From contig JBFWNE010000003.1 in NCBI GenBank assembly GCA_050251215.1, positions 20,704 through 52,703 on the forward strand: a stretch of DNA of 32,000 nt. The letters are read 5' to 3'. The number at the start of each line of letters is the position of its first letter. Within the stretch, counting starts at the first letter, position 1. Origin of the DNA: Candidatus Nanopelagicales bacterium. Lineage in GTDB: Bacteria; Actinomycetota; Actinomycetes; S36-B12; CAIYMF01. Positions 1 to 17,500 of this stretch are shown in pieces. The position numbers were made by a program, and so were the translations under genes. The notes beneath the pieces are model-generated. The model ran no database searches. It was given only the letters and a program-made list of their open reading frames with translations, and was not told where the DNA came from.

Positions 1-714
1 GGCGGCGCCCTCATCGTGGGCGAGGGCGGCGAGCAGCAGCACGTCTCCTTCGACCGGGTGCTCGTCGCCCTGGGACGCGCACCGCGGACCGATGGTCTCG
101 GTCTGGAGCACGCCGGCATCGAGCTGGACCCCCGACGCTTCGTCATCGTCGACGCTTCGCTGCGGACCACGAACCCGCGTGTGTGGGCCGCGGGCGACCT
201 CACGGGCCATCCGCAGTTCACCCACGTCGCGGGAGTCCACGGCAGCATCGCGGCGAGCAACGCGGTCCTCGGGCTGCGTCGCAAGGTCGACGTCGTGGCG
301 GTGCCCCGGGTGACCTTCACCGACCCCGAGGTCGCGGCCGTAGGAGCGTCGACCAACCCGGACGAGGTACCTCCCGGCACAGAACTGGTCACACGCGGGC
401 ACGAGCACGTGGACCGCGCCGTGGCGGAGGGCCAGACCGCGGGGTTCGCCCGCCTCGCAGTCAGCCGCAAGGGAACGGTGCTCGGCGCGACTGTCGTCGG
501 CGCTCGCGCCGGGGAGTCCTTGGCCGAGGTCACACTGGCCGTGCGCAGAGCACTGCGTACCCGCGACCTCGCTGGCACCCTGCATCCCTACCCGACGTAC
601 ACGGACGGGGCGTGGAACGCGGCCATCGAGGACGTGCGCGGCCGACTCGCTCGCCCGGCCGCGGCCCGCGGCATCCGGGCCATCCGCCGCGCGCGGCTCT
701 GGCTGTCACGATGA
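1..714 (+). CDS. FAD-dependent pyridine nucleotide-disulfide oxidoreductase (dihydrolipoamide dehydrogenase / mercuric reductase-like class I family), C-terminal part; 5' end lies outside the window
   Basis: Frame 1 is open from nt 1. VWAAGD second FAD-binding motif, followed by the dimerisation-domain region (VPRVTFTDPEVAAVG, GFARL, HPYPTY). High GC3. Confidence 0.85.
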   Translation, partial: GGALIVGEGGEQQHVSFDRVLVALGRAPRTDGLGLEHAGIELDPRRFVIVDASLRTTNPRVWAAGDLTGHPQFTHVAGVHGSIAASNAVLGLRRKVDVVAVPRVTFTDPEVAAVGASTNPDEVPPGTELVTRGHEHVDRAVAEGQTAGFARLAVSRKGTVLGATVVGARAGESLAEVTLAVRRALRTRDLAGTLHPYPTYTDGAWNAAIEDVRGRLARPAAARGIRAIRRARLWLSR

Positions 715-748
715 TCCCCGACCCGCCGCGATCCGGAGGAGGTGGCTC

Positions 749-1057
749 ATGCAGATCGTGGTCATGACCGTCCCCGAGTGCGCTAGCCAGGAGGCCGCTC
801 TCGCGGCGGCCCGTGCAGTGGTCGATCGTGCCGATGTGCCCGGGGCGGAGGTCCGCCACCTCGTCGTGTCCACCGACGAGCAGGCCCGCCTGCTGGACTT
901 CCGAGGGTCGCCGACGTTCCTGGTCGACGGTGCAGACCCGTTCTCTGCTCAGGCGCCGCCTGTCGGGCTCTCGTGCCGCGTGTACCGGCTCGGAGGCCGG
1001 GCCGTCGGCTGCCCTTCGGCCGCGGAGCTCGCTGCGGCTATCGCGTCGAGCGCTTGA
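749..1057 (+). CDS. small thioredoxin-fold protein (family not assigned)
   Basis: GGAGGAGGTGG Shine-Dalgarno just upstream of the ATG at 749. 102 aa with FRGSPTFLVDGADPF, a motif typical of small thioredoxin/glutaredoxin-like proteins. High GC3. Confidence 0.6.
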   Translation: MQIVVMTVPECASQEAALAAARAVVDRADVPGAEVRHLVVSTDEQARLLDFRGSPTFLVDGADPFSAQAPPVGLSCRVYRLGGRAVGCPSAAELAAAIASSA

Positions 1058-1093
1058 GCTCGGAGGCGCGAGCCGAACAGCCCCTGCGGCGCG

Positions 1094-1837
1094 TCACGCG
1101 GTGCGGCTGGTGTGCCCACCCGTCGAGGCGCTCCACGACGGATCGTCGGCAAGCGCGCGCAGCACCGCGATGTCCCGCACACGGATGCGGCCGCGGCGCA
1201 GGTCCACCAGGCCGCGGTCGCGCAGGTCGCCGAGCACCTTGGTCGTGGTCTCGCGCGTGGTTCCCACGAGATCGGCCAGCTGCTCATGCGTGAGACGCAC
1301 GTCGGCCCCTCGGTCGCTGCCGGCGAGGGCGACCAGCGTCGACGCGACGCGCGAAGGGACAGTGCGGAAGACCGCCTGCTCGAGCCTCCGCTCCAGGTCC
1401 GTGACGCGATGGCCGAGGGCGGTCACGATGCGCGCCGAGACGCGGGCGTCGGCGAGCAGCAGCCGGTACACGTCGTCCTTGCTCATGATGCAGACGACGC
1501 TCGGCTCAAGGGTCTCGGCGTACGTCTCCTGCAGGCTCTGGCCGAGGAGCTGCATCTCGCCGAAGATGTCGCCCTTATCGACGATGGACAGGGTGAGCGT
1601 TCGCCCGTCGGCGGTCACCCGGTAGAGCCGCACCCGGCCCCTCTTGAGGATGAAGAGCACCTCGTTGCCCTGGCCCGGCCTCAGAAGCAGCGTCCCGGCC
1701 GGGACTTCGCGCATGGGGGCGGAGGCGGAGATGCGCTCCATGTCCTGCGGAGGGAGGTCGCAGAAGATGTCGACCTCCGACAACCGCCACTGGCCGGGGG
1801 CGAGGACGTGTGGTGAGCCGCGGTCGCGGTCTGCCAT
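1094..1837 (-). CDS. Crp/Fnr family transcriptional regulator
   Basis: cNMP-binding beta-barrel (LFILKRGRVRLY...GDIFGEMQLLG) and C-terminal HTH (VGTTRETTTKVLGDLRDRGLV). The ATG at 1837 overlaps the upstream stop (TGATG). The track ORF starts one codon earlier at a TTG (1840). Confidence 0.9.
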   Translation of the reverse strand: MADRDRGSPHVLAPGQWRLSEVDIFCDLPPQDMERISASAPMREVPAGTLLLRPGQGNEVLFILKRGRVRLYRVTADGRTLTLSIVDKGDIFGEMQLLGQSLQETYAETLEPSVVCIMSKDDVYRLLLADARVSARIVTALGHRVTDLERRLEQAVFRTVPSRVASTLVALAGSDRGADVRLTHEQLADLVGTTRETTTKVLGDLRDRGLVDLRRGRIRVRDIAVLRALADDPSWSASTGGHTSRTA

Positions 1838-2109
1838 CAACGCGCACCCGCCAGCAACGTGACCAGGTGGTCGGGTTCGGGATTCCCCATGGAGATGAGG
1901 CGGTCGTTGTAGAAGTAGGTCGGCGTCCCGAGGAAGGGAAGGCCCTCGGGCAGTTCGCCGACCTCGACGTCGATCACGTCGACGACGGCGGTGGGAAGCC
2001 GACGGACAACCTCCTCCGCGACTTCGCGAGCGCGGCCGCAGCCGCCACAGTCGGCAGCGACCACGACCACGAGGTGCTGCCGCGACTGGGCCGCGCTCGC
2101 GTGGACCAT
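1837..2109 (-). CDS. thioredoxin/glutaredoxin-like protein with CGGC redox motif
   Basis: 90 aa. CGGC dithiol motif near the N-terminus and GTPTYF, the cis-Pro-loop-like motif of the thioredoxin fold. Sits 1 nt after the upstream gene and overlaps the crp-like start. Confidence 0.75.
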   Translation of the reverse strand: MVHASAAQSRQHLVVVVAADCGGCGRAREVAEEVVRRLPTAVVDVIDVEVGELPEGLPFLGTPTYFYNDRLISMGNPEPDHLVTLLAGAR

Positions 2110-2110
2110 C

Positions 2111-2575
2111 TCAGGACGACGCGGCAGGCGAGCGGCGGAGGATGAGCGCCGTCACCAGCCCGAGGACGATGCCGAAGATCATGTGACCCATGAGCGACTT
2201 CCAGACCATGTCGTTGACCTGGAAGAGCGGCATCCCGAGCTTCGCCGGCATGAGCAGCAGCGGGCCCAGCACCCACCACACGACGCCGTAGACGAGCCCC
2301 AGCCCGGTCCAGGCGCCGATGCCGAGCGATCGGCCGGTGAGGAGCAGCCCGAACAGGCCGCCGATGAAGGCCGAGATGGCCAGGTGCACAAGCCACCCGA
2401 CCGCGATGGAGTCGCTGCCGACCAGTGCCGCGATCATCGGGATGGAGTCCATCATCTGCATCATCATCCCGAAGACGACACCGCCGGCGAGCCCGCCGAC
2501 GACTCCGGCCGAGATGCTGCGAATGGCGGTCGACGGCTGTGCTGCCGTCGACCGCGAGGTGGCTGTCGTGGTCAT
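2111..2575 (-). CDS. small integral membrane protein (about 4 TM helices), function unknown
   Basis: 154 aa with four hydrophobic Gly-rich segments. First gene of a tight three-gene minus-strand operon (membrane protein, Trx-like, Crp/Fnr). Confidence 0.7.
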   Translation of the reverse strand: MTTTATSRSTAAQPSTAIRSISAGVVGGLAGGVVFGMMMQMMDSIPMIAALVGSDSIAVGWLVHLAISAFIGGLFGLLLTGRSLGIGAWTGLGLVYGVVWWVLGPLLLMPAKLGMPLFQVNDMVWKSLMGHMIFGIVLGLVTALILRRSPAASS

Positions 2576-2674
2576 GCTGGGTCCTTCCGTCGGGGTGCGG
2601 TCGCTCGGACGTTATGGCTGGCCGTTACGGGGGTTCTGTGTCGGCGCCCACGTTGAGTCGGGTGGATCGCTGCC

Positions 2675-2715
2675 GGAACCCGACGGGAAGACGCGGCCAT
2701 TCCCGACGGGTTTCC
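2675..2715. repeat. imperfect palindrome containing two copies of CCCGACGGG, upstream of the NrtS-like gene
   Basis: GGAACCCGACGGGAA (2675-2689), a 10 nt spacer, then TTCCCGACGGGTTTCC (2700-2715). 14 pairable positions with one mismatch and one bulge. Lies in the divergent intergenic region 2576-2760. Confidence 0.35.
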
Positions 2716-2760
2716 CGATCGTGATGACGCTCCAGCGAACCTCGGGCCGACGGGCCAGCC

Positions 2761-3021
2761 ATGCGTGAGCCGGCCGAGCTGCACTGGTCGACCAGGCGTC
2801 AGGCGGCCGCGCTCGTCTGCCGTGGCGCGACTTTCGACCCGTCCGCTCGAATCGCCGCCGTCGTAGGCACGCTGCTGACGTTGGTGAACCAGGGCACGGT
2901 CATCGCCAGCGGCGCTGCCGACTGGGCGACGGTGCTGAGGGTCGTCGCGAACTACCTCATCCCCTACGTCGTCTCCAGCATCGGCTTCCTGTCCAGCTAC
3001 CGCCGCCCAGGTCCGTCATGA
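2761..3021 (+). CDS. NrtS-family (putative nitrate/nitrite transporter) small membrane protein
   Basis: 86 aa. VVGTLLTLVNQG and LIPYVVSSIGFL match my recollection of the NrtS family signature. Two hydrophobic helices. High GC3. Confidence 0.6.
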   Translation: MREPAELHWSTRRQAAALVCRGATFDPSARIAAVVGTLLTLVNQGTVIASGAADWATVLRVVANYLIPYVVSSIGFLSSYRRPGPS

Positions 3022-3462
3022 GCGCTGGGCGACGGCCGGCCGACCGAACGTGTGCCCGCCCACATCCGCTTCTGCTGAGCGCTGCGAGCGTGTTGGCATG
3101 AGGTTCGTCCTGGCCGCCCCGGTCGTCGCCGTGCCGCTCTGGCTCATCTGTGCCTCGTGGCGAGGCCGCGTGAAGATCCGCTGCTGCGGTTCCGACACCC
3201 GCTGCGATCTCCGTATGCGCCCCGCGTTCAACGACGATCCGCTGGTTCGCCCAGTACCCCGTCGACTCACGCGAGCAGGCTCCATCGTGTCCACCTCATC
3301 GCCCGACGCGCGGTGATTCGCCCGTCACGTCAACCGCCCCTGGGCTTGCCGAACGACCGTCGGCAGCCCGCGCCCAGGCCATGCGAGGCCATGGTCCGCC
3401 GTCCCGGTCGCCGAGGTCGAGGTGCGGGCAGCGCACGCCGACGGAGAACTGGTTGCCTGCCG

Positions 3463-3891
3463 CTACGGGCAGCTTCGATCTCGTGGCAGCTGAAGCGAGT
3501 CAGCCAGCGCCGCAACGGCGAGGACGGCACCCGCCGCGTTGCGCTCATCCAGGCGGTCCATCGCATCGTCGATCGAGGCGAGAGCGACGCAGATCCGGAG
3601 CGTTGCCCGCGTGCCACCGGACAGCCATCTCGTGTCGTCCAGCAGCTCCTCGGCGAACGGAAGTCGCTGCCAGTCCACCCAGCCGGGCTGACCGTCATCG
3701 AAGTCTCCAGCGATGCCGACCGTCCGCAACATCGCGTACAGGCTGCGACCGCAGAAGTCAGAGCGGCGAAGAAGAAGCCAGGCAGCATGGCGGCCCGGCT
3801 GACCGAGGTAGGGGGCGTCGAGTTCCATGACGACGACAGTGCACGGAGTGGCGCGTCGGCCAACCGGCACCAAGCCGGCGGACACCGTCAT
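3463..3891 (-). CDS. hypothetical protein (121-142 aa; start either ATG 3891 or ATG 3828)
   Basis: High GC3 through the whole frame. Globular-looking sequence (DDGQPGWVDWQRLPFAEELLDDTRWLSGG). No family recognised and no clear SD at either ATG. Confidence 0.5.
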   Translation of the reverse strand: MTVSAGLVPVGRRATPCTVVVMELDAPYLGQPGRHAAWLLLRRSDFCGRSLYAMLRTVGIAGDFDDGQPGWVDWQRLPFAEELLDDTRWLSGGTRATLRICVALASIDDAMDRLDERNAAGAVLAVAALADSLQLPRDRSCP

Positions 3892-3895
3892 GCGA

Positions 3896-3925
3896 AACGG
3901 CCACCCGAGTGCTCGGGTGGCCGTT
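3896..3925 (-). terminator. GC-rich perfect hairpin, probable terminator of the upstream minus-strand operon
   Basis: AACGGCCACCCGA / TCGGGTGGCCGTT: a 13 bp perfect stem around a short GTGC centre. On the minus strand it is followed by TTTCG. It lies about 200 nt after the stop of the 55-aa ORF and 4 nt before the ATG at 3891. Confidence 0.45.
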
Positions 3926-4125
3926 CCTGGCGTCGTGGTCTGCCGATTCACTGTCTCGGGGCAGATCCTCCGACGCGCAGGACTGTCGGGTGCCTCCACT
4001 GCCGTGCAACTGGATCCAGGCCCACCCGAGTGTGTCGTCGGTCACGTCGGCGCAAGCGATCGTGGTATCCGACTCACCGATGGCAAGGCGAAGGTCCCCT
4101 TCGAGGCCGCCAGCTCCTGCCCCCG

Positions 4126-4293
4126 TTACCGCCCGCCCAGCAACTTCTTCACGGCGGCGTCCGAGGTGGAACGGCTGACCACCGAGGGTCGACTCTTGAA
4201 CGAGTCGGAGGACCCCTCAGCCGAGCGGACACGCGTGAAGGCAACGGGCTTGCGGCCCGTCACGACGCGCGGGGTCTCGCGCTTCTCAGCCAT
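4126..4293 (-). CDS. small basic hypothetical protein (55 aa)
   Basis: GGGAGGAAG SD directly upstream. The ATG overlaps the stop of the upstream membrane-protein gene by 8 nt (ATGGCTGA). Sequence MAEKRETPRVVTGRKPVAFTRVRSAEG... is basic and probably disordered. No family recognised. Confidence 0.4.
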   Translation of the reverse strand: MAEKRETPRVVTGRKPVAFTRVRSAEGSSDSFKSRPSVVSRSTSDAAVKKLLGGR

Positions 4294-5650
4294 GACTTCC
4301 TCCCAAGACATCACTGTACGTCCAGCCCCTGACGGTGGACGCCATGCTGACCGCGTCAATGGTCACCAGTAGCTGCACAGCGAACATCAAGGCACCGACA
4401 ACGCTTGCCAAGGTCCACCCGGCACCCGTCGCCGTGAGGACCGCCGACACGAACAGGGTGCTGCTGGTGGCCAGGAGGCAGCGCCGTGCCCGCCACAGCA
4501 CAAGCCCGACGAGGGCGTGCTCCGCCGGGCGGGCGAACCAGGCCGCCAGCAGCGCTGGCGCGGCCAGAAGAATGGCGGCCACAGAACCTGAGCGTCCCCC
4601 GTCACCGATGACGCTCCCCCACCAGTCGGCGCCGGCCAACGTCACCATGAACGGCAAGGTGAGGAGGGCGAGTCCGACGAGGCTGCCGAGCGCAGCGACG
4701 CTCACGAGCCCCCTGCGGTGGGGCATGAGCTCGACCCAAGCCTGGGCGTCGCTGGACCAGGGCTGCCGCGAGTAGGTCGCGACATGGGCGAGGTGACCGG
4801 GCATGCGACCGTCCCCGCTGGGATCGACTTCGGCGTGTTCGCCGTCGTCCTCGTCTTCGACCGGGGTCCAGTACTCCAGGAGCGTGAGTCTGCTGATCTC
4901 CAGCCCTTCTGGAGCGGCGACTTCCAGGTGAACGCTCTTGGCGACGCGCATCTGCGGCATGTCCAGGTCGATCACGGCCGGCAGCTCTCCGATCCGGCTG
5001 GGCGGGTCGAACGCCATGTCGTAGCTGACCTTGACGATGGTCCTCGTATCAACCCGTTCATACGGGATCTCAACGACGAACCAGAACTTGTCGGTGAACT
5101 CCGCGATGCCCCAGGCAAGGAGCTCGAGCTGGAACCTGCGGTCGTCCTCATCGGCGGGCAGGGCGTCGTGCCATTCGGCCAAGCGGCCGACCACCTCAGA
5201 GGCGGTCACCCTCGCGTCGGCGGGCTCGCCGTTCACAACGTCGCCGATCCGCGATTTCACCCACTCCAGATCCTCACCGGGGCGTCCTTCGAGGGCCTCC
5301 TCGGCGAGGCTCTCCAGGGCGTCGACAGCGAGCCGGGCGTTCTCCCCTCGCCTGAGGACCGGGAGAGCGCCGCCGCTCGCGTCCGCCACGTCCAGACGGC
5401 GCAGCGTCCCCTTGCTGATCAACGCCAACGGCACCAGCACCCGGTCCCGGGAGCCGGGCACGGCGTCGTGGCCCCGGAGGGTGAAGTCGAAGGAGATCGA
5501 CCGTCTGCTCTCGCCGGTGGGCAGGAACCGGATGGACTCGACCCGCCGGTCGATCCACTGATCGGTCGTCAGCAGAAGCGTGGCGAGCCTCTGCCCCCGC
5601 TGCGTAGGCGTCAGCGGCGTCGGCGGCCTCGCAGATGTCGGTACGGACAC
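4286..5650 (-). CDS. uncharacterised protein: about 330-aa N-terminal soluble domain plus about 4 C-terminal TM helices
   Basis: Long ORF with high GC3. A GTG at 5650 is preceded by GAGGAGGGGAAGGGGA; the track ORF extends to a GTG at 5692. C-terminal hydrophobic segments (LVSVAALGSLVGLALLTLPFMV, SVAAILLAAPALLAAWFA, TLFVSAVLTATGAGW, VVGALMFAVQLLVTI). No family recognised. Confidence 0.75.
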   Translation of the reverse strand: MSVPTSARPPTPLTPTQRGQRLATLLLTTDQWIDRRVESIRFLPTGESRRSISFDFTLRGHDAVPGSRDRVLVPLALISKGTLRRLDVADASGGALPVLRRGENARLAVDALESLAEEALEGRPGEDLEWVKSRIGDVVNGEPADARVTASEVVGRLAEWHDALPADEDDRRFQLELLAWGIAEFTDKFWFVVEIPYERVDTRTIVKVSYDMAFDPPSRIGELPAVIDLDMPQMRVAKSVHLEVAAPEGLEISRLTLLEYWTPVEDEDDGEHAEVDPSGDGRMPGHLAHVATYSRQPWSSDAQAWVELMPHRRGLVSVAALGSLVGLALLTLPFMVTLAGADWWGSVIGDGGRSGSVAAILLAAPALLAAWFARPAEHALVGLVLWRARRCLLATSSTLFVSAVLTATGAGWTLASVVGALMFAVQLLVTIDAVSMASTVRGWTYSDVLGGSHG

Positions 5651-5792
5651 GGCTCCCCTTCCCCTCCTCGGCACGACGCTAGCGCGCAGCACGGACGCCG
5701 AGGGGTCGACGGCGGCCTGGTCCTGGTCAGCGCCGCCTGCGACGGCTCATGACCGGGCGTGGCGAGGCTGGCAAGGTCTGGCGGCCCACCGC

Positions 5793-5850
5793 TCAGCGTC
5801 AAGGACGGACCCGGAGAAGTATTCGTAGCGGCGGTCGTCCTTGACGCTGA
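5793..5850. repeat. 15-bp perfect inverted repeat with a 28-bp AT-enriched spacer in the divergent region upstream of recombinase A
   Basis: TCAGCGTCAAGGACG (5793-5807) and CGTCCTTGACGCTGA (5836-5850). The spacer contains GAGAAGTATTCGTAG, unusually AT-rich for this DNA. The right arm ends 76 nt before the ATG at 5927. Confidence 0.5.
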
Positions 5851-5926
5851 CGTGGCGCCACCTGCACCGATGCCTCCCCCGCGCACTGTCCAGGCCACAA
5901 GCCCACGACACGGGAGGCGATCGGCC

Positions 5927-7672
5927 ATGACGACCCAGCCGCGCACGCGGAAGACCCACCGCAACGGCGGGCGCGCCCAGCTCCGGACGCGGTCCGCGCT
6001 GGTGGCCCTCGAGCCGGCCACGGCCGCCAGTCTGGAGGCCGAGCTCGTCCACGGAGCCGACGCCCCGTCCTTCGCGGCCACGGCCGCCGACGCGCTCATC
6101 GACTCCTACCTCGACGAGCACGGACGGCTGGTGCCCGCCCCGTCGGAAGCCCTGCTGCACCTGCCGCCGGAGCTGACCGAGGAGCAGCGGCAACGCCGCA
6201 TCGAGCGCAGCAGGTTCGTCGACATGATCCGGGCCGACGCCTGGGCCGACAGCACCCTCACCGCGTACGGGTGGCACGTCCGGGCCTGGCGCGCGTGGGC
6301 GCGCGAGGAGGGCGTTCCGGCGCTGCCCCTCAACCCGCTGGACGTCGCCCACCACCTGGTGGACTACGCCTTCCGCTGGACCGGCGACCAGCCGGAGCTG
6401 GACGAGGACGGCGAGCCCTGCCCGGCCGTGGCCGCCAGCACCATCAGCCAGCGCATCGCGGCGCTGAACAAGCTCGCGGAGTTCGTCGGCATCCCCCGGC
6501 CGGGAGACAACGAGGGCGTGGGCCAGCTCGTGCTGGGACTGCGGCGCCGGCTGCTCGTGGCACCGGAGAACGCCAAGGCCGCCCTTGATCGCCGGTCCCT
6601 GGACCGCTGCCTGGCGGCGACGACAGGGGTGCAGCTGGCAGCCGCCCGGCTGCAGGTCATGGTGCTGCTGCGGCACGCCGCCGGTTGCACCGCCGGGCAG
6701 CTGGCGCGGCTGCACTGGGCCGACGTGGCGTTCGCCGACGACGGCTCGTGGGCTGACGTGACGTTCACGGGAAGCCGGCGCCACGATCCAGGGCGCAGCA
6801 TCCGGCTGCACAGGCGCACCGGCGCGGAGACCTGCGCCGTGCGGGCTCTGGAGGACCTGTACCGGATCTCCCCCGGTCGGGGGTGGGTGCTGGCGCACGG
6901 CAGCGGTCGGGCGCTGACGCGCCAGGCGATCCATCTGGCCGTGACGACGGCGGTGGCCGCGCCCTGGGACGAGGTCCCTCGCCTGCCTCTCGTCGAGCTG
7001 CGCCGCGCCATCCCGATGGCGACCTCATGTGGCGCGTTCATGGCGGCGCGGGACGCGGCGCTTCTCGAGGTCGGCTTCATCACCGCGCTTCGCCGCTCCA
7101 ACCTCTCCGCCCTCAACTGGAGGGACGTCGTCGACCATGGCTGCGACGGCTTCGAGCTGCGGATCCGGCGCAGCAAGACCGACCAGGAGGGCCACGGCCG
7201 GTCGAAGTGGGTGCCGCAGGCGGAGCCCGGATCGACGGGGCCATGCCCGGCGTCGGCATTCCGCCGCTACCGCGCGGAGCTCGTGAAGTCCCTCGGTCGC
7301 GAGCCGAAGGGCGAGGAGCCCGTGTTCTGCGCGGCGCTGTCGAACGGCGCGCTCCGCCGCGACGGCGAGGGCCGGCCCTGTCGGCTGACGGGCGACGGCG
7401 TCAACGAGGTGGTGCAGCGGCTGGCCACTGCAGCCGGGCTCGCCGGCACGACGGTGAACGGGCGCCACCCCTACGGCGCCCACAGCCTGAGGGCCGGGTT
7501 CATCACCGAGGCTCTCCGGGACAACAAGCTCGCCATCGAGGACGTGCAGGAGGTCAGCGACCACCGCACCATCGCGATCCTGCTCGACTATCGCCGTGAG
7601 GTGAACGCCTCGCAGCGCAACGGGAGCAGGAAGATGGTTCAGGCACTCGGGTCGTCCAGCGGCAAGGCGTAG
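5927..7672 (+). CDS. tyrosine recombinase / integrase (large, 581 aa), here recombinase A
   Basis: GGGAGG SD 9 nt before the ATG at 5927. Catalytic signature in order: ALRRSNL (Arg), RRSKTDQ (Lys), GAHSLRAGF (HxxR), SDHRT (His), LLDYRR (Tyr). N-terminal SAM-like core-binding region. Confidence 0.9.
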   Translation: MTTQPRTRKTHRNGGRAQLRTRSALVALEPATAASLEAELVHGADAPSFAATAADALIDSYLDEHGRLVPAPSEALLHLPPELTEEQRQRRIERSRFVDMIRADAWADSTLTAYGWHVRAWRAWAREEGVPALPLNPLDVAHHLVDYAFRWTGDQPELDEDGEPCPAVAASTISQRIAALNKLAEFVGIPRPGDNEGVGQLVLGLRRRLLVAPENAKAALDRRSLDRCLAATTGVQLAAARLQVMVLLRHAAGCTAGQLARLHWADVAFADDGSWADVTFTGSRRHDPGRSIRLHRRTGAETCAVRALEDLYRISPGRGWVLAHGSGRALTRQAIHLAVTTAVAAPWDEVPRLPLVELRRAIPMATSCGAFMAARDAALLEVGFITALRRSNLSALNWRDVVDHGCDGFELRIRRSKTDQEGHGRSKWVPQAEPGSTGPCPASAFRRYRAELVKSLGREPKGEEPVFCAALSNGALRRDGEGRPCRLTGDGVNEVVQRLATAAGLAGTTVNGRHPYGAHSLRAGFITEALRDNKLAIEDVQEVSDHRTIAILLDYRREVNASQRNGSRKMVQALGSSSGKA

Positions 7673-9069
7673 CGCTCGACGTCGGCCGCCCGGCCGCGGG
7701 AGCGGTCGTACTTGGCCGTCGTCGTGATGCTCTCGTGGAAGGTCAGGTCCATCGCGATCTCCAGCAGGCTCAGACCTGCCTCGGAGGCGAGCGTGACGCC
7801 TGTCGCCCGCAGAGTGCGCGTGCTGACGCTGACCTGACGGCCGTCGCCAGCCAGGGCGGGGCCACCGGCGCTGCGGTACAGCGAGCGCAGCAGCTGCGAT
7901 GCGCCCTGGAGGGTCATCGGGGCGCCCAGGTCGGTGTCGCCGGCGAACACGTAGTCGTCGTCGCTCGCGCCCTGCCAGCGTCTCACCTCCACCTGGTCCC
8001 GGAGTGCACAGGCCGGGCAGTGGCCGCCGCACCGTACTCCGCCTGCGTCGGCGTGGAGGACCGGCTTGACGTTCGGCCGGCGCTTGCGCAGCCCGGCCGA
8101 CCGCTGGATCTTGGCGCCCTTGTCGAGGCCCATGCGGCACTCGTAGCCGTCGACCGTCTCGACGATGTCGATCATGCGGAGCGCGGCCATGTCCGCGTGA
8201 CGGTTGGCGGTGACGATGCCGACGAGCAGGTAGGCGCGGTGCCGGCGGCGCCGGGCGAGCTGCGGGTCGACCATGCGGAGCCACCAGGTCCAGTCGTCAT
8301 CGGACAGCGGCCAGGACGGGCTCGCGTTCGGGTTCGGCTGAGCGCCGACCGGCCGATGCGACCTGTCCCATGCCCGCTTGAGCGCGCGGCGGTCACAGCG
8401 CCGACCTGCCACCGCGTCCCCGGAGGGGTCGGCCAGAGGCAGACGCTCCTCGGGATCAAGGTCGAGAGCAGCGCAGAGATACCGGAAGCCCTCGGGATCG
8501 CGTTCGGCGTCGACGACGCCTCTCGTTCCCTCAGCCCGGATCGCGATGCCTCGAGGGTCTCGCCGGAAGGACGACCGCGCCAGCCGCTGGGCTTGGCCGC
8601 TCAGCGGGTCCCATCCCAGGTACCGGCTCACCACCAGGACGCCGCGACGCCTGCGGACTGCGGGGAGAAGCTCGACGTCGTCGGCGACGAGCGCAGCCAT
8701 GAGCTGGGCGACGTCCGCGGTGACAGCGTCCGTCCTCGGCGCCAGGCCCGGGGGCTTGCACCGACGCTCCGCAGCGAGGTACCGCCGGATCAGCGCTCCT
8801 CGGACGGTTACCCCGACCTCTCCGAGGACCGCGGCCACGGCGCAGACGTACCCCGCCTGCGTCTCGAACGCCCAACGCTCGCGTCCGGAGAACACGAACT
8901 CGAGCACCGTTCTCTCCGCTTCCCCGTCCGGAGTGCCCGCCCCGGGTATGCGGCGGTTGTTGGCGAGGCACCACAGCTGGAACCGCGCGAACTGGCCATG
9001 CTGCGCCTCGGTGGGTCCACCGGCTCGCACCTTGGCGATGACCTGGTCACGTGCGCCATCCCTAGTCAT
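7639..9069 (-). CDS. tyrosine recombinase family protein (476 aa), here recombinase B
   Basis: The ATG at 9069 overlaps the stop of recombinase C by 8 nt (ATGACTAG). C-terminal STRTLRATG (xxxR box), FHESITTTAKYDR (His...Tyr) and an upstream ANRHADMAAL Arg box. Confidence 0.85.
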   Translation of the reverse strand: MTRDGARDQVIAKVRAGGPTEAQHGQFARFQLWCLANNRRIPGAGTPDGEAERTVLEFVFSGRERWAFETQAGYVCAVAAVLGEVGVTVRGALIRRYLAAERRCKPPGLAPRTDAVTADVAQLMAALVADDVELLPAVRRRRGVLVVSRYLGWDPLSGQAQRLARSSFRRDPRGIAIRAEGTRGVVDAERDPEGFRYLCAALDLDPEERLPLADPSGDAVAGRRCDRRALKRAWDRSHRPVGAQPNPNASPSWPLSDDDWTWWLRMVDPQLARRRRHRAYLLVGIVTANRHADMAALRMIDIVETVDGYECRMGLDKGAKIQRSAGLRKRRPNVKPVLHADAGGVRCGGHCPACALRDQVEVRRWQGASDDDYVFAGDTDLGAPMTLQGASQLLRSLYRSAGGPALAGDGRQVSVSTRTLRATGVTLASEAGLSLLEIAMDLTFHESITTTAKYDRSRGRAADVERYALPLDDPSA

Positions 9070-10543
9070 GTCCCGCTCCGTCGCCGAGGCCGCTGAGAAG
9101 GCGCACGGCAGCACTCCTGCCCGAGTGCCGACCCGTGTAGCGCAGGGTCGTCTCGGCGTAGACCTGGCGCAGGCCTGACTGGATCGTCTCGAGGTCCCAG
9201 CCGTCGCGGTCGGCCTGGTTCCCGTAGCCGCGCCGGGTGCTGTAGGCCGAGTAGGTGCAGGGAATGCCCGCGAGCCGGCACAGCCGCTCGAGGTCGTGGG
9301 CAGCGAGCTTGACCAGGTCCTTGCTCGCCTCACCCGACTGAAGCCGCGCGAGGATGAGCGGTCCGCCGCGCCCGACTCGGGCATCGCGAACGCACAGATA
9401 CTCCGCGAGGGCGTCGCAGACGATCTGGTGGTTCTCCCAGCTCAGCGCCCGCTCCACCTTCTTGTCGCCGCGCGGGTCATCCTTCGTGGAGAGGAGCCGC
9501 AGGAACCAGGCGCCTTCATCGGGCGAGAGCCAGACGCACTCGCGGGGAAGGCCGTCGAGGTCGCCGGCCATGCGCAGACCGAGGCTCCAGGCCAGGGCCA
9601 CCCAGGCGCGGGCGCGGACGATGATCAGGGCATCGCCTCGCAGGTCGGCTTCGGCCATGAGGACGAGGCCTCGCCGCAGCCCCGCCAGCTCCCATGCGGT
9701 CAAGTCGTGCCGGGCCTGCAGGACGATGGCTTGGCCGCGCGGATGCGTGGCCAAGCCGGCCCAGCCGCGGTTGCGCAGGTTGAGGAAGACCTGCTTGATG
9801 CTCGCCGGGCCCTCCGCGAACAAGACCGATGACGGGTCCAGGTTCTCGGCGACCACCTTGACCGCGCACGCGGTGCAGTCCCAGGGAACCCCTCGTGCGC
9901 GCGACTCGTGATCGCACAGAAGCACGTGGCCGGCGACGCTGACGCCGCCCTCTACAATGGCAACGTCCGCCGCCACCAACCTTCTGAGCTGCGGGACGGT
10001 GAACCCGGCATCGAGCGAGAGCAGCACAGCAGCGCGCTTGGCATCAGCCGCCGGCGTCCTCGGGACCGAGACCTCCATCAGCGTGCGCATCGCCGCGCGC
10101 GTGAGAGGCACGGCGCGACGGTCCTCCGGCTCGGCACCCGCCTGATCGTCCTGCTCGGCCAGCCGCTTCTGATACCCGCGACGCAGTCGCGTCCAGTCCG
10201 CCGCGTGCGCCCGCGACTCGATCGGCAGCGGCTCATCCCCCAGGACATGGCGCACCGCAGACAGCAGCCCCAGGACGCTGTTCCACTGGTACAGCGAACC
10301 GTCTGGCTTGCGCCGACCGAGCAGCGCGACGTAGGCCTCGTACGGTGCCGCGGCTGGGTCGTATCCCAGGGAACGACAGTGACGAATCCACGACCGGAAG
10401 CGCTCGTCGTAGTCGCTGAGCGTGCGGTCCTGCAGCCCGCGGCTGGCCAGGAAGCGCTCGAGCTCCTCGGCGAAGGCGGCTTCGTCCTCGATCTTGGGGG
10501 GCTGGAAGTAGGGCTTGCGGCCGCGGCCGCCGTTGCGTGTCAT
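9062..10543 (-). CDS. tyrosine recombinase family protein (493 aa), here recombinase C
   Basis: N-terminal SAM-like domain. C-terminal GLRMAGDL (Arg), LSTKDDP (Lys), YSTRRGYG (xxR box) and ETTLRYTG (Tyr). High GC3. Confidence 0.8.
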   Translation of the reverse strand: MTRNGGRGRKPYFQPPKIEDEAAFAEELERFLASRGLQDRTLSDYDERFRSWIRHCRSLGYDPAAAPYEAYVALLGRRKPDGSLYQWNSVLGLLSAVRHVLGDEPLPIESRAHAADWTRLRRGYQKRLAEQDDQAGAEPEDRRAVPLTRAAMRTLMEVSVPRTPAADAKRAAVLLSLDAGFTVPQLRRLVAADVAIVEGGVSVAGHVLLCDHESRARGVPWDCTACAVKVVAENLDPSSVLFAEGPASIKQVFLNLRNRGWAGLATHPRGQAIVLQARHDLTAWELAGLRRGLVLMAEADLRGDALIIVRARAWVALAWSLGLRMAGDLDGLPRECVWLSPDEGAWFLRLLSTKDDPRGDKKVERALSWENHQIVCDALAEYLCVRDARVGRGGPLILARLQSGEASKDLVKLAAHDLERLCRLAGIPCTYSAYSTRRGYGNQADRDGWDLETIQSGLRQVYAETTLRYTGRHSGRSAAVRLLSGLGDGAGHD

Positions 10544-11904: not shown

Positions 11905-12885
11905 TCACTCGGCGGCAGGGAAGAAGCTCTCGAGATCGTCATAGGCGGCGACCACAGGACCCGGAGCTTGGAGTGCGATGTGGTCGCCTTCGACGGCCTC
12001 GCGCATACCGCCGATGTCAGGGAAGAGGACTCTGCGGCTGCGGTTGTACGTGGACTCGAGGTGGGTCCTCATCGGCTTCTTGACCGTCGTGGGGATCACG
12101 AGGACGCACATAGGCAAGCTGATGGGCTTCCCGGGCCCCTTGGCGGCGCCGAAGAGGCTCTTGATCGTGGTGGCGGTCGGCAGGCGGCCTGGAGGTCGGT
12201 GCAACCCGTCCATGCCCGGCACGGATGCGGCCAGGGGGACCACGCCGGAGAGGAACAGCCCTTCTTGCGCCTGCATGCGGGCGTCGCGGATCGTCGGCGT
12301 GACCAGGAAGGGGGCCTCGTCCCGGGCGGCGGTGTTCAACGCAACGCGTAGCGGCCAGCCCAACGGGTCTGCCAGTCCCCCGTACGTGCCGGAGCCACCG
12401 GGCTCAACGGTCTGGAACTCGGGCAGGTCGGTGACGTCGAACGCGATCAGCGCGCCTGCCGCATCGCCGGTCTTGCTCGTGCGCTGGCAGGCGAACCAGA
12501 GCGCGGTGATGGGGTTGGACGTCACGTCGAGCAGCCTTGTGGGGATGCCGTGGTGCTGAAGTTGAGCGAGCACGTGGAGATCGGATCCCCAGGGGACGTC
12601 GAGGGCCACTCCCCACTGGCGCGCGGTGCGGATGAGGGCAAGCTCGCGCTCCCTCAGTTCGAGTTCGCTCGGCGGTCGCCCCAGCTCCTCGGTCAGTGCA
12701 CGGACGAGCGAGGAGGAGATCCGGTATCGGCTGTCCGGTACGCCGCGCCAGACGTATCTGCGCCCCGCCGCGAGGGTGCCGATGCGGGACACACCACGCA
12801 TCAGCTCGTCGATGGAGGAGACCTTGTAGCCGAAACCGGTGTCGACCCAGGCCTTCGGGCCCATGCCACCGGTCAGGTCGGTCAC
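11905..12885 (-). CDS. FRG domain-containing protein (326 aa)
   Basis: YVWRGVPDSRYRISSSL ((F/Y/W)RG motif). LAQLQHHGIPTRLLDVTSNPITALWFAC (the QHxGxPTRLLD core of the FRG domain). RMQAQEGLF. The GTG start overlaps the upstream stop (GTGA, 12882-12885). Confidence 0.85.
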   Translation of the reverse strand: MTDLTGGMGPKAWVDTGFGYKVSSIDELMRGVSRIGTLAAGRRYVWRGVPDSRYRISSSLVRALTEELGRPPSELELRERELALIRTARQWGVALDVPWGSDLHVLAQLQHHGIPTRLLDVTSNPITALWFACQRTSKTGDAAGALIAFDVTDLPEFQTVEPGGSGTYGGLADPLGWPLRVALNTAARDEAPFLVTPTIRDARMQAQEGLFLSGVVPLAASVPGMDGLHRPPGRLPTATTIKSLFGAAKGPGKPISLPMCVLVIPTTVKKPMRTHLESTYNRSRRVLFPDIGGMREAVEGDHIALQAPGPVVAAYDDLESFFPAAE

Positions 12886-13787
12886 GCGGATGCTCCGCCC
12901 TCGGCCGCGATCCGGTGTCGGAGCTGGTTGAGGGTGGGTCCGTCCTCACCGACGCGCCAGGCGTACCAGCCGTCGTAGGACACGACTTCTGCGGCGGCCA
13001 TCGCGGCGCCCGAGGGGCTGGCGTGCCGGGTTCCGTCGGAGAGGGTGATGACGCCATCGGCACCCAGTTCGGCGTCGTACCTGGTGCCCTTGCGGGGGCG
13101 GCGCCAGACGAGAGGCGCGGGCGTCTGCAGTGTCGCGGCGACATCGGCGAGGGTGACTTCGAGGAAGGCGCGGTCGTCCGTGGCCGCCGCCTCCGGCGCG
13201 TCGTCGGCGGGTGCCGCCGCGTCGGTGGCCTCCGGCTCGGTCTCCCACTCCACGTTGAGCACGCGGCGGCGGGATGCGTCGACGTAGAACGCGGCGCGGA
13301 TCTTCTGGACCGGCAGGCGGTGCTGGATGAGGAAGTCCAGTGCGTTGGCGGTCCTGGCATCGAAGCTGCGCGCGACGAGGACGAGCTTGGGGTCGCGCTG
13401 GACGAGGACGGGCGTGCTGGCTCCGGTGAACTCGGCCCAGTCCTCCCAGAAGGCGGCTTCTCCACCGTGGTAGAGCGAGGCGATCTGGTCCAGGTTGGTG
13501 GTTCGGGCCCAGCCGGCGTACTCCAGGGCCTGGGCGAGTTGGGAGCGGTCGATGTCGCGCTTGACTTCGATGACCACCACGCGGCCTGCGGGGTCCAGGG
13601 CCAGGATGTCCGGGATGAGTCCGCCGGGCAGGGGTGCTTGGCGACGGACCCGGAACAGGTTCTGGCCGGTCAGTTCCTCCAGGTTGTCCCAGAGCAGCGT
13701 CTCGATCTCGGACTCGTACACGTTCGCAGGGACGTGCTGGCGGCTGAACTGGACGAGATCGTCGTCGCGCAGATCGAAGATGGGCAC
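12882..13787 (-). CDS. NucS/DUF91-like PD-(D/E)xK nuclease fused to a RAMA/DUF4357-like C-terminal domain (301 aa)
   Basis: PDILALDPAGRVVVIEVKR (D...ExK nuclease core) and SQLAQALEYAGW. An acidic low-complexity linker follows. C-terminal motifs: DGVITLSDGTRHASPSGAAMAAA...YDGWYAWRV...TLNQLR. GGGGGAG SD before the GTG at 13787. Confidence 0.85.
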   Translation of the reverse strand: MPIFDLRDDDLVQFSRQHVPANVYESEIETLLWDNLEELTGQNLFRVRRQAPLPGGLIPDILALDPAGRVVVIEVKRDIDRSQLAQALEYAGWARTTNLDQIASLYHGGEAAFWEDWAEFTGASTPVLVQRDPKLVLVARSFDARTANALDFLIQHRLPVQKIRAAFYVDASRRRVLNVEWETEPEATDAAAPADDAPEAAATDDRAFLEVTLADVAATLQTPAPLVWRRPRKGTRYDAELGADGVITLSDGTRHASPSGAAMAAAEVVSYDGWYAWRVGEDGPTLNQLRHRIAAEGGASA

Positions 13788-13875
13788 GTTCTCCCCCTGA
13801 GTGTCGGTCGTGGACCACGGTAGGGCCCTCTACCGACGCCCGTCGTCTAGAACGTCCCGGACGTCTCCATCGGGG

Positions 13876-14511
13876 TCAGCAGACGTCGTGCCGCCTGAGG
13901 CCGCGGGCCGTCTCTGCCGCGGACAACGCCAGGGAGCACACCGGGCAGACCACGGGGCGAACCGCCGCGGGGTGGCCGGGCCGCGCCGCGGGCCGCGCGT
14001 TCCGGGAGCCTCGTGCGTCAGCGGCTGCCTTCCGTGCAGGAGGCGAAGCCGGTTGGCTGGGCCGTGGCGGGGAGGCGGCAGGCAGCCCGGCGGTGTCGAG
14101 GTCGGAGATGTCCGCCCGCACCCCATGGGCGAGCAGCGCCTTCACGGGGCGGACAAGGCGCGTGGCCAAGCGCTTGTCCTCGGCGTTCCCCGTTCGTCGC
14201 AGCGCCACCACGACCGGCCGTAGGAGCGTCCATGCGAGTTGAGTCTGCTGGCGGGCTGCTCGTTTCTCCTTGGCGATGACGGCGAGCCTGGCCGATCGCA
14301 GATGCGGCATGGCCGTGGCCACTTGACCCACTCGGCCGCCCAGGCGTCGCTTGTCGGCATCGGTCAGTCGGACGGACACGGGGATCGACGGAATCGGCTG
14401 TTGTGGCGGCGACTCGGGTGCCGGCCGGCTCCCTTCCCCGGTGGTGGATCCGCTGGTCGCCACGAGCCGCTGTCGGCCGCGCTCTGCGTCCCAGTCAAGG
14501 CGTCTCGCCAC
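13876..14511 (-). CDS. hypothetical protein with RHH-like segment and C-terminal Cys cluster (211 aa)
   Basis: GAGGA SD 6 nt before the GTG at 14511. GC3 about 80%. VSVRLTDADKRRL resembles the beta-strand/helix start of ribbon-helix-helix proteins. C-terminal CPVCS...RRHDVC. Low-complexity Pro/Ala regions. Confidence 0.5.
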   Translation of the reverse strand: MARRLDWDAERGRQRLVATSGSTTGEGSRPAPESPPQQPIPSIPVSVRLTDADKRRLGGRVGQVATAMPHLRSARLAVIAKEKRAARQQTQLAWTLLRPVVVALRRTGNAEDKRLATRLVRPVKALLAHGVRADISDLDTAGLPAASPPRPSQPASPPARKAAADARGSRNARPAARPGHPAAVRPVVCPVCSLALSAAETARGLRRHDVC

Positions 14512-14567
14512 GTCAGATCCTCATCTGCGCCGTCAGCAACAGTCCGGCCCTTGCCGCTCCGAGCAGG

Positions 14568-17500
14568 TCACGCCAGTCCTGCGTAACGGTCGACGAAGGC
14601 GATGAGGCGGTCGAGGACGGTGCGCTTCTTGGTGGCGTGGCCGGCGTCGGGAGCGAACCGGGACACCGGGGGCAGGATGCGGGTGATCGCTGTCCCGGTC
14701 GTAGGGACTGCTCCATCTCGGAACGCGTCGTTGACGAACGCGCGGGTCTCCTCCGGGCGGAGGCGCTCGCTGGTGATGATGTCCTCGAGCTCCGCCGTGC
14801 GGCGCGCGGCGAGGAAGGCCTGCCACTGGTCGCGGGTGTCGCCAGTGATCGAGACCTGCTCGATGAAGGCAAGGATGAGGTCGCGCTTGTTGCGCAGCGA
14901 CGGGCTGGAGTCGATGGCGCGCGTGACTGCCTCGGAGTCGATGACGCGGTCCTCGCCGTCGCCGTGCTCGGTGCGCCAGGTGTCGATGAGGGCGAGGATG
15001 TAGTCGACGCCGACCTCGACCTGCTTGATGAGCTCGATCTCGAAGACGACGTCGTCGTTGATCGACGCCTTCTGCGCGGCGTCGACGGTGCGGAACTCGG
15101 CGTAGAGGTCGAGGTAGACCGACCGGTAGTCCTGGAACTGCCGGGGGCTCAGCGGGTCATGCCCGGTGAACTCGTCGAACGCGGTCAGGATGTTGCGCAG
15201 CCGCAGCAGCTGCCCGAACAGGGCGATGAACTCCTTCTGCGCCGCCTCCCCCACGATCACCTGCCCGAGCGGGAACCGGGCCAGCAGGTCGGTCACGACC
15301 CGGTCGTACTCGGCGTAGTAGTCGGCGTAGGGCTTGAGCAGCACGATGCCGCGGGCGTCGCGGTTGCCGAACAGGGCGAGCGCGTCGTTGGTGGCGTCCT
15401 CGAGGTCGCGGAAGGAGACGATGTTGCCGTAGGTCTTGACCGAGTTCAGGATCCGGTTGGTGCGCGAGTAGGCCTGGATGAGGCCGTGGGCGCGGAGGTT
15501 CTTGTCGACCCACAGGGTGTTCATGGTGGTGGCGTCGAACCCGGTGAGGAACATGTTGACCACGATGGCCATGTCCAGCTCGCGGGACTTCAGCCGGCCG
15601 GCGAGGTCCTTGTAGTAGCCCTGGAACCCGTCCCCGCCGGTGTCCCACGAGGTGCCGAACATGTCGTTGTAGTCCTGGATCGCGTCCTCGAGGAAGTCGC
15701 GGGAGGGCTGGTCGAGCCCGGCGGTGTCCAAGCCCTCCTCCTCGACGAAGGTTTCGGCCTCGGCCTCGTTGGCGGCGTAGGAGTAGATCAGCCCGATCCG
15801 CAGCCGCCGGTAGCCGGGGTCGGCGGCCTCGCGGGTGCGCTGCGCGGTCTCGAACGCGTTGTAGTACCGCTTCGCCGCGTCGATGGAGGCGGTCGCGAAC
15901 AAGGAGTTGAAGCCGGACAGGCGCTTGTCGCCGAGACGGTAGGTGGCGGTGCGCTTGGTCTTCTGGTCGTAGTGGTCGAGCACGTAGTCCACGACCTGGC
16001 CGAGCCGGGTGGGGTCGAGCAGGGCGCGCTCGGTGTCGATCGCGGACACCTGCGCGTCGGGAAGGGACGCCGGGGCCTTGATGGTGTTGACGTAGTCGAT
16101 GCGGAACGGCAGGACGTTCTTGTCGTTGATCGCGTCGACGATCGTGTAGGTGTGCAGCCGGTCGCCGAAGGCCTGCTCCGTGGTGCGCAGCGCGACCGTG
16201 CCGGTGGTGCCGGCGTTCTCGGCGAAGATGGGCGTGCCGGTGAACCCGAACAGGTGGTAGCGGGTGAACGCCTTCTCGATCGCGGTGTGCATCTCCCCGA
16301 ACTGGGAGCGGTGGCACTCGTCGAAGATCAGCACCACGTGCCCGGAGTAGATGGCGTGGCCGGCGTTGGTCTTCACGAACGTCGCGAGCTTCTGGATCGT
16401 GGTCACGATGATCCGTGACGACGGGTCTTCCAGCCGGCGCTTGAGGTGGGCGGTGTTCGTCGTGCCGTCAACGGCGCCCTTCTCGAACCGGTCGTACTCC
16501 CGCTGGGTCTGGTAGTCCAGGTCCTTGCGGTCGACCACGAACAGCACCTTGTCCACTCCGTCGAGGCGGGATGCCAGCTGCGCGGCCTTGAACGACGTCA
16601 GCGTCTTGCCCGACCCGGTCGTGTGCCAGACGTACCCGCCGGCGGCGACCGTGCCCAACTGCTTGTGGTTGGTGGACGTGGCGATTCGCTGGAGGATCCG
16701 CTCGGTGGCCACGATCTGGTAAGGGCGCATGACCAGCAGCTTGCGGTCGACGTCGAAGACGCAGTACCGGGTCAGGAGGTTGAGCAGCGTGTGCTTGGCG
16801 AAGAACGTGGCAGTGAACCCGGTCAGGTCCGTGATGGGCCGGTTCTCAGCATCAGCCCACCAGGAGGTGAACTCGAAGCTGTTCGACGTCGTCCGCTTCC
16901 CGCGCCGGCTTCCCGACTGCTCCGCGAGGTGCCCAGCCCGGGTGGTGTTGGAGTAGTACTTCGTCAACGTGCCGTTGCTGATCACGAACAGTTGCACGTA
17001 CTCGAACAGGCCCGAGCCAGCCCAGAACGAATCCCGCTGGTAGCGGTCGATCTGGTGGAACGCCTCCCGGATATCCACCCCGCGGCGCTTGAGCTCCACG
17101 TGCACCATCGGCAGCCCGTTGACCAGGATCGTGACGTCGTATCGGTTCGACCGGGCCGCGCCACCGGCCTGGTCGACCTCGTACTGGTTGATCACCTGGA
17201 GCCGGTTGTTGTGCACGTGCACCTTGTCCAGGAGGTACACGTTCTTGCTCGTGCCGTCGTCGCGCTTGAGGACCTGGACGTGATCGGTCTGGATGCGGGA
17301 CGTCTTCTCGACGATGCCCTCGTTGACCCCCGCGATGCACTGGGAGAAGAACCGGTCCCACTCGGCGTCGCTGAACACGAACCCGTTCAACGCTTCCAGC
17401 TGCAGACGGAGGTTCCGCACCAGGTCGGCCTCGGACGCGATCGACACGTACTCGTACGCCTGGCCTCGCAGTTGCGAGACCAGCGCCGCCTCCAGATCCG

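Follow-up and report, generated by a model that had tools for sequence, protein, structure and literature searches.

The two-gene unit and its protein family

We analysed a stretch of 32,000 nucleotides (nt) from Candidatus Nanopelagicales bacterium (contig JBFWNE010000003.1, positions 20,704 to 52,703 of the forward strand; hereafter the window). Its minus strand carries two overlapping genes, the larger encoding a protein with a soluble part followed by four transmembrane (TM) helices and the smaller encoding a basic micro-protein. Judged by comparison with related sequences, these two genes form a conserved operon, one that belongs to a large actinobacterial family as yet unnamed. The genes and their translation signals are listed below.

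4286-5650, minus strand: large gene (454 amino acids, aa) with a GTG start at 5650-5648 and a TGA stop, from the list of open reading frames (ORFs) and the translation
5653-5669, minus strand: purine-rich Shine-Dalgarno tract GAGGAGGGGAAGGGGAG directly 5' of the 454-aa start, read from the sequence
4126-4293, minus strand: small gene (55 aa), whose product has an isoelectric point (pI) of 11.6 and is rich in S, R, K and V
4296-4304, minus strand: Shine-Dalgarno sequence GGGAGGAAG of the small gene, five bases upstream, read from the sequence

The longest reading frame of the large gene spans 4286-5692 on the minus strand and would yield 468 aa, again from a GTG start; the 454-aa version is identical to a deposited protein, P0001 ('MAG: hypothetical protein AB7O74_06980, Candidatus Nanopelagicales bacterium'). 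The ATG of the small gene lies within ATGGCTGA (4286-4293), giving an overlap of 8 nt with the TGA end of the large gene, and gene callers predict the small gene in 6/6 public contigs of the strain. The content of guanine plus cytosine (GC) at the three codon positions of the large gene is 0.69/0.51/0.85, the third-position value of the small gene is 0.86, and the third-position GC of both genes is coding-like for a genome of ~70% GC. The original prediction, made from the letters of the window, had described a 454-aa protein with a soluble part and four TM helices, followed by a 55-aa basic ORF that overlaps its stop by 8 nt and carries its own Shine-Dalgarno sequence. The overlap and the ribosome-binding signal can be read in the sequence, and hydropathy together with AlphaFold bears out ~310 soluble residues and four TM helices.

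An alignment of 83 family members was used for the database scans, for conservation and for structural modelling. The AlphaFold2 model of the large protein obtained from it has a predicted local distance difference test score (pLDDT) of 90.3 and a predicted template modelling score (pTM) of 0.87, and divides the protein into the following parts.

4715-5608, minus strand: soluble domain (aa 15-312), consisting of an N-terminal helix, a beta-sandwich of ~12 strands and a four-helix insert (AlphaFold2)
4325-4708, minus strand: four-helix TM domain (aa 315-442), from hydropathy and AlphaFold2
4517-4531, minus strand: R-x-P-E-H motif (R374, E377, H378) in the loop between TM2 and TM3, followed by the invariant R389

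In the model the N-terminal helix (residues 15-32) is followed by four strands, the four-helix insert (101-187) and eight further strands, the last of which (301-310) leads straight into TM1. The membrane helices span residues 315-339 (TM1), 353-372 (TM2), 386-408 (TM3) and 412-442 (TM4), with a short helix at 379-384, and TM2 is the best conserved of them. Near-invariant residues occur throughout the soluble part (W32, R35, R36, V37, S53, D55, P74, K80, R203, K207, S239, H241, E243, P247 and H289) and in and around the membrane part (G314, L362, P365, R374, E377, H378 and R389); within the 83 sequences, R374, E377, H378 and R389 are conserved at 95, 95, 86 and 100%, respectively. The median pI of the soluble domain is 5.5, i.e. 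acidic. One member, P0151, has an extra insert of ~100 residues in the sandwich (residues ~240-340) that by eye looks like a beta domain of the carboxypeptidase-regulatory type and that found no match in Pfam.

A topology with four TM helices and both termini inside the cell is predicted from the sequences. An N-terminal hydrophobic segment was present in 0/83 members, and lysine plus arginine accumulate ahead of TM1, between TM2 and TM3 and at the C-terminal end, the remaining loops showing no such bias. Two fusion proteins of 943-944 aa that are distantly related to one another, P0071 and P0090 (L024, 8001-10835), show the order signal peptide, PKD domain, GDSL/SGNH hydrolase, one TM helix, RRVRR and then the family domain, an arrangement that would join an extracellular hydrolase to a cytoplasmic sandwich. 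On these three independent lines (lack of a signal peptide, charge bias and the PKD-GDSL-1TM fusions) the soluble domain is taken to be cytoplasmic, and consequently the R-x-P-E-H loop should face it. Any coupling between the soluble domain and the helices would most obviously run through this loop.

The extent of the family was revealed by HMMER. Word-indexed searches with the full protein, an 83-sequence profile and a profile of the N-terminal domain returned 1, 5 and 11 proteins, and HMMER, run exhaustively against 1.84 billion cluster representatives, returned 1,386 at E<=1e-3, 491 at E<=1e-10 and 26 at E<=1e-30. Typical homologues are 400-500 aa long, share 27-40% identity and align from about residue 17 to residues 400-440. 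Because the alignments run near full length, the soluble and membrane parts appear to travel together: both domains are present in essentially all of the top 150 HMMER matches, and 11/11 matches of the N-domain-only profile are full-length proteins carrying both. A search for related loci with an alignment of a narrow subgroup returned three from genomes, two from metagenomes and none from viruses. All named members are actinobacterial 'hypothetical proteins' (Geodermatophilus, Actinomyces, Cryobacterium, Nocardioides and Nanopelagicales). Pfam matched 0/83 members, NCBIfam gave no match for the four members tested, a search of PDB sequences with the family profile returned chance-level matches only, and literature searches found no account of such a system. 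The protein family appears to be undescribed. The expectation that no named system would match was upheld, searches of Pfam, PADLOC, PHROGs, NCBIfam and PDB sequences all being null, and the homologues do not belong to a named housekeeping family.

The small gene was followed across 16 independent loci (the window, L007, L011-L015, L017, L018 and L020-L026). A small ORF of 55-138 aa lies on the same strand 3' of the large gene in 15 of the 16, with a start that falls anywhere from 11 nt ahead of the large-gene stop to about 90 nt beyond it. The fifteen include L007, where the partner is an unrelated-looking acidic ORF of 75 aa located 86 nt downstream; the sole locus without a small ORF is L025, where a gene for an NT5C 5'-nucleotidase takes its place. 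The pI is 10.6-12 in 11 of 13 partners aligned, and acidic partners, recognised by motif only, occur at L024, L017 and L026. The alignment of 13 ORFs has a common core of two hydrophobic residues followed by [VI]-[RK]-[SGT]-[AV]-E-[GSA], with an 'AAVxxLL' helix ~15 residues further on. In the window this core is found at the following position.

4210-4230, minus strand: core motif VRSAEGS, aa 22-28 of the small protein, from the alignment of 13 small ORFs

The 6-mer VRSAEG is common to the window ORF and to the Nocardioides-type partners, a result reached by 85 of 20,000 shuffles, and [ST]AE is present in 5/9 partners outside the Nocardioides-type group, which was reached by 4 of 20,000 shuffles. 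In seven sequences the motif lies 30-32 residues from the C-terminus. At the level of sequence, these motif statistics are modest but real. For the Nocardioides-type partners the profile scores of held-out members (E=1e-11 to 1e-18) and ratios of non-synonymous to synonymous substitution rates of 0.15-0.6 clearly point to a protein under purifying selection. A leave-one-out profile recovers only 6/10 partners at E<0.05, and the hidden Markov model (HMM) of the small protein did not recover those of L024, L017, L026 and L021 at E<10. The homology of the window ORF to the other partners is proposed because of its position and the short motif, its profile score not being significant. Conservation of the small ORF, on which the original prediction depended, was therefore found for its position in 15/16 loci and as purifying selection in one subgroup. 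A separate candidate, a partner fused to the C-terminus of P0109 ('VLAPAEPSSFPSR...DAAEVAAF'), was rejected: the AlphaFold model of this tail is strand-free with pLDDT<50 and the HMM does not detect it, leaving it as a lead at the level of the motif.

Genomic context of the homologues

Known or candidate defence genes lie within ~6 kilobases (kb) of the family member in 6/16 loci (within ~5 kb in five homologue loci), which is in line with the proposed association with defence. In three of those six loci the large gene belongs to the same overlapping operon as a defence gene. The neighbours that were found are given below; R-M denotes restriction-modification.

L020: 4-nt overlap of the large gene with a type I hsdR gene; next in line is a gene resembling those for Argonaute-associated nucleases
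L021: type I hsdR gene ending 4 nt ahead of the large-gene start
L025 (Actinomyces procaprae SPQV01000013.1, 929-12509): 621-aa member overlaps a UvrD/GajB-like helicase gene by 4 nt
L011 (Nocardioides stalactiti, 239-6513): pair lies between PDC-S45 and PDC-S56 candidates, adjoining a tyrosine integrase
L007: type III R-M 4.6 kb away
L022: resolvase neighbour
L026: Prim-Pol and excisionase-like genes
L012, L013, L015, L018, L023 and L024: ordinary metabolic or regulatory neighbours

At L025 the UvrD/GajB-like helicase gene is preceded by a gene for a 2,180-aa DruE-like helicase (DEAD/Helicase_C/MZB), the NT5C 5'-nucleotidase gene overlaps the family member by 8 nt, and ParE/Phd and VapC genes flank the row. 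In three separate lineages the large gene shares an operon with a defence gene of the restriction or helicase type, and chance is a poor explanation for such coupling. Third-position GC of the Nocardioides copies (0.67-0.72) is below that of their neighbours, and may indicate horizontal transfer.

Several loci have features of their own. The operon at L025 is possibly an undescribed Druantia-like variant. At L011 the PDC-S45 protein is trypsin-like and the PDC-S56 protein has 672 aa, the whole forming a compact island of candidate defence genes. At L026 (11925-21535) two very large AAA_16/guanylate-cyclase/BTAD regulators adjoin the pair, within an element with Prim-Pol and HTH_17 genes. At L013 (Nocardioides sp. 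zg-1230, 5677-7241) the homologue is split over two frames, indicating a pseudogene or a sequencing error, and the small partner ORF is intact.

A possible defence function and its alternatives

We suggest that the locus is an anti-phage or anti-mobile-element module in which a cytoplasmic sensor is fused to a membrane effector, and we place the probability of this reading at roughly 0.45, a little short of even odds. According to the model, the large protein would be anchored in the membrane by its four C-terminal helices and would present a beta-sandwich of ~300 residues, with its helical insert, to the cytoplasm. The small basic protein, made in step through translational coupling, would probably bind or regulate it. 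The acidic soluble domain may bind the basic micro-protein, a phage-derived cue or both, such that the cytoplasmic domain, restrained or assisted by its small partner, would detect infection. The invariant polar face (R35/R36, S53/D55, K80, R203/K207, S239/H241/E243 and H289) could serve either for binding or for contact with the R-x-P-E-H loop, the TM2-TM3 connection via which the signal would pass. Opening or disordering of the helix bundle, which is probably an oligomer, would then result in ion leak, collapse of the membrane potential and arrest of the infected cell. The original prediction had likened the pair to abortive-infection membrane effectors; it is upheld in part, an abortive-infection role and damage to the membrane being hypothetical. 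What the analysis shows are the genes, their family, fold and topology, the conserved partner and the association with certain neighbours, from which the defence function, its trigger, the part played by the small protein and the leak are inferred. That the family might represent a class of inside-out, ligand-gated-channel-like oligomers, in which a cytoplasmic sandwich gates a four-helix pore via the TM2-TM3 loop as an immune effector controlled by a micro-protein, is a more specific proposal that we consider quite improbable.

Set against the systems of PADLOC v2, we rate the family as a module of the sensor-membrane-effector type built from a seemingly undescribed protein family. Effectors such as CBASS Cap14 and Cap15, Pycsar PycTM, type III CRISPR Cam1 and the SLATT/S-4TM proteins combine a cytoplasmic ligand-binding domain with membrane-disrupting TM helices in one chain, and such single-protein sensor-plus-TM effectors reside in defence islands. 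The large protein resembles them in its cytoplasmic domain, its TM helices and its location in a defence island. However, the examined loci of the family have no conserved adjoining cyclase or signal-producing enzyme, and by Pfam the soluble domain is not a SAVED, CARF, cNMP-binding or Cap15-type beta-barrel domain. Placement inside R-M or Druantia-like operons is typical of add-on abortive-infection genes, and the members coupled to hsdR (L020, L021) or following the DruE-like and UvrD/GajB-like helicases (L025) resemble such accessory genes; in contrast to these, the association of the family is inconstant and it matches no Druantia component in PADLOC.

By functional analogy, the closest systems are lambda RexA/RexB and the gp30/gp31 exclusion systems of the actinophages Sbash and Butters. 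In these a cytoplasmic sensor acts with a four-TM protein whose termini are inside, and infection-triggered depolarisation has been proposed (PMC6426596, PMC7542560). In Actinobacteria such systems are carried beside integration or immunity genes of mobile elements. The four helices with cytoplasmic N- and C-termini predicted for the large protein are like those of the four-TM component. Unlike in these systems, the sensor and the membrane effector would here reside in a single polypeptide accompanied by an additional 55-aa partner. Moreover, RexA and Sbash gp30 carry DUF4747 (PMC6426596), whereas Pfam identifies this domain in 0/83 members, and, in contrast to these prophage genes, which are expressed in lysogens, no homologue of the family was found in phage genomes, viral contigs or PHROGs, and no phage genes were identified in the window, whose island does have recombinases.

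A number of observations weigh against a defence role. The neighbours are ordinary at about half of the homologue loci, and the sample of 16 loci is small and non-random and includes many short contigs. No sequence match or confident structural match links the family to any proven defence protein: 0/83 members match PADLOC-DB v2.0.0, nor does either window protein, and 0/83 match PHROGs. Searches with tblastn using P0001 and P0008 found nothing in 50,697 phage records or in 72,556 plasmid records, and a scan of viral contigs found no homologue. TM2 has no obvious polar pore-lining stripe, and the PKD-GDSL fusions hint at a role related to the envelope. The case for a partner protein is likewise weakened by the window small ORF, which when left out of the profile scores E=1.4 and is not significant, and by the putative fused tail of P0109, for which AlphaFold gave no docking.

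Some of the same evidence would suit an accessory membrane protein of signalling or channel type, for example a cytoplasmically gated ion channel or a transducer of envelope stress, with no role in phage conflict and found beside defence genes since islands gather accessory genes of every kind. The ordinary neighbours at L015, L018, L023 and L024, the genes for extracytoplasmic function (ECF) sigma factors near L018 and L024, the architectural resemblance to ligand-gated channels and the fusions to extracellular PKD and GDSL hydrolase domains, which suggest coupling from outside to inside, are all consistent with this. However, gene ends that overlap or nearly do so, with hsdR as the neighbour in two lineages and DruE/UvrD-like genes in another, are hard to obtain by chance, and the patchy distribution, the atypical codon-position GC in Nocardioides and the frameshifted L013 copy fit a dispensable gene that moves horizontally, so that we judge this explanation to be somewhat unlikely. 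It is distinctly unlikely, in our view, that the pair stabilises genomic islands as a membrane toxin and its small antitoxin (or with these roles exchanged), with the small basic protein neutralising the membrane protein or repressing the operon, loss of the island killing the cell and any anti-phage effect being secondary. The two genes are tightly coupled in translation and the small one comes second, an order known from toxin-first pairs; this would fit, as would the position at the edge of an integrase-bearing island, the integrase, resolvase or Prim-Pol neighbours at other loci, the toxin-antitoxin pairs flanking L025, and an acidic soluble domain (median pI 5.5) with a basic partner suited to direct binding. 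Yet neither protein matches a toxin or antitoxin family in Pfam or NCBIfam, the 72,556 plasmids, a class of replicon on which addiction modules are common, yielded none, a two-domain 'toxin' of 454 aa whose soluble part holds many invariant polar residues would be unusual, and the partners at L024, L017 and L026 are acidic.

Two further explanations concern the small protein. It may be mainly a DNA-binding autoregulator resembling ribbon-helix-helix proteins and not a structural partner, an idea that is compatible with the defence reading and that we hold to be unlikely. The pI of 10.6-12 in 11/13 partners and the succession of a basic N-terminal tail, a hydrophobic strand-like segment (xVVRSAE) and a C-terminal amphipathic helix (AAVxxLL) argue for it; the lack of any ribbon-helix-helix match in Pfam or NCBIfam even at E<=1, the acidic candidate partners at L024, L017 and L026, and a strand-to-helix segment shorter than in ribbon-helix-helix repressors argue against it. 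Alternatively, the window small ORF could be a chance frame, the large gene alone being real, since long spurious ORFs are common in DNA of 70% GC, and the non-significant leave-one-out score is in line with this. We find that scarcely credible for an ORF that follows a Shine-Dalgarno sequence of its own, whose ATG overlaps the large-gene stop and whose third-position GC is 0.86, that is predicted in all contigs, and that has an equivalent at 15/16 loci, the motif at the same distance from the C-terminus, and clear relatives under purifying selection.

By architecture, the closest known proteins are the pentameric ligand-gated ion channels, with their helix, sandwich, four TM helices and TM2-TM3 loop on the side of the sandwich. 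Foldseek matches to such channels make up 41 of the top 50 from the PDB and are drawn from many subfamilies (alpha7 nAChR, 9iir, E=3e-4; ELIC, GLIC, GlyR, GABA-A, GluCl and sTeLIC), with both domains aligned. In the model the order of elements is the same, an N-terminal helix and a beta-sandwich whose last strand enters TM1, and the short TM1-TM2 loop on the far side and the conserved TM2-TM3 loop on the near side are also alike. Nevertheless, true if very divergent homology to the Cys-loop/GLIC/ELIC superfamily is very improbable. The channel matches score poorly (E from 3e-4 to 2e-2, template modelling (TM) scores of 0.17-0.38, root-mean-square deviations of 9-20 Angstrom), and equally weak Foldseek matches were obtained to ITIH1, ribophorin, beta-sandwiches of the M1-aminopeptidase type and a putative protease; a search of a viral library gave nothing better than the PDB matches. 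Alignment of the family profile with a verified GLIC sequence by hhalign gave a probability of 0.18%, 0/83 members match the Neur_chan families PF02931 and PF02932 in Pfam, and the large protein has an 85-residue helical insert. In addition, its sandwich is placed inside the cell and no signal peptide precedes it, the reverse of the arrangement in these channels. As far as the model can tell, the resemblance is one of architecture only, with the orientation in the membrane reversed, and would not be evidence of membership.

If the pair confers protection from phages, ~1,400 sequence clusters that are absent from Pfam, PADLOC and PHROGs would be added to the actinobacterial immune repertoire, in a phylum whose defences are under-explored and are relevant to antibiotic producers and to phage therapy of mycobacteria. 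The confident fold would provide a tractable model of a cytoplasmic domain that gates a small helix bundle, and the conserved micro-protein would be a concrete case for regulation of membrane effectors by tiny proteins. The fold itself, an intracellular sandwich wired by an invariant loop to four TM helices, invites comparison with ligand-gated channels. Were the pair to give no protection from phage, the family would still mark a widespread membrane function of unnamed kind in Actinobacteria.

Flanking sequences and the surrounding island

The two genes lie on the margin of an island, with core genes (NrtS-like, thioredoxin-like and Crp) on one side and an integrase gene on the other. The flanking features are as follows.

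3897-3924, minus strand: terminator-like hairpin CGGCCACCCGAG-CACU-CUCGGGUGGCCG with a perfect 12-bp GC-rich stem, then UUU
5651-5926: intergenic region that separates the pair from the divergent integrase gene, from the gene calls; presumed promoter region
5759 (longest ORF) or 5927 (gene caller) to 7672, plus strand: integrase gene (Pfam Phage_integrase), divergent from the pair
7639-9069, minus strand: 476-aa candidate recombinase, weak match to the integrase catalytic domain (27% over 195 aa, E=5e-6)
9062-10543, minus strand: 493-aa candidate recombinase with no family match

The hairpin, detected by an inverted-repeat search and RNA folding, lies ~200 nt 3' of the small gene and probably marks the end of the two-gene operon. 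A pattern scan of 3000-6000 called no consensus promoters or terminators, the hairpin being missed because its T run is short, and found no sigma-70-type consensus in the divergent region, to which a promoter role may be assigned from its position. Downstream of the pair, some gene callers predict a doubtful ORF of 121-142 aa (3463-3891, minus strand), which has a third-position GC under the 0.80 cut-off and spans the hairpin region.

The pair had been described as divergent from a trio of recombinase genes. This is the case for the plus-strand gene at 5759-7672 and does not hold for the two minus-strand genes, and the three recombinase-like genes are thus not co-oriented. The integrase gene converges on the 476-aa gene with an overlap of 34 nt, and the 493-aa gene overlaps the 476-aa gene by 8 nt. 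Within the window no phage structural genes were identified, and no transfer RNA, Rfam family or direct repeat resembling an attachment site was found to delimit the island.

A defence island occupies 11905-20592 and comprises an FRG-domain protein (PDC-S15), a RAMA-domain protein (PDC-S11) and a type I R-M system with an R subunit at 14568-17927 and a methyltransferase at 18862-20592. These genes lie 6-15 kb from the pair, the type I R-M system being 9 kb off on the far side of the three recombinase genes. Between 15 and 21 kb the GC content is 0.63-0.66, compared with 0.70-0.75 elsewhere in the window.

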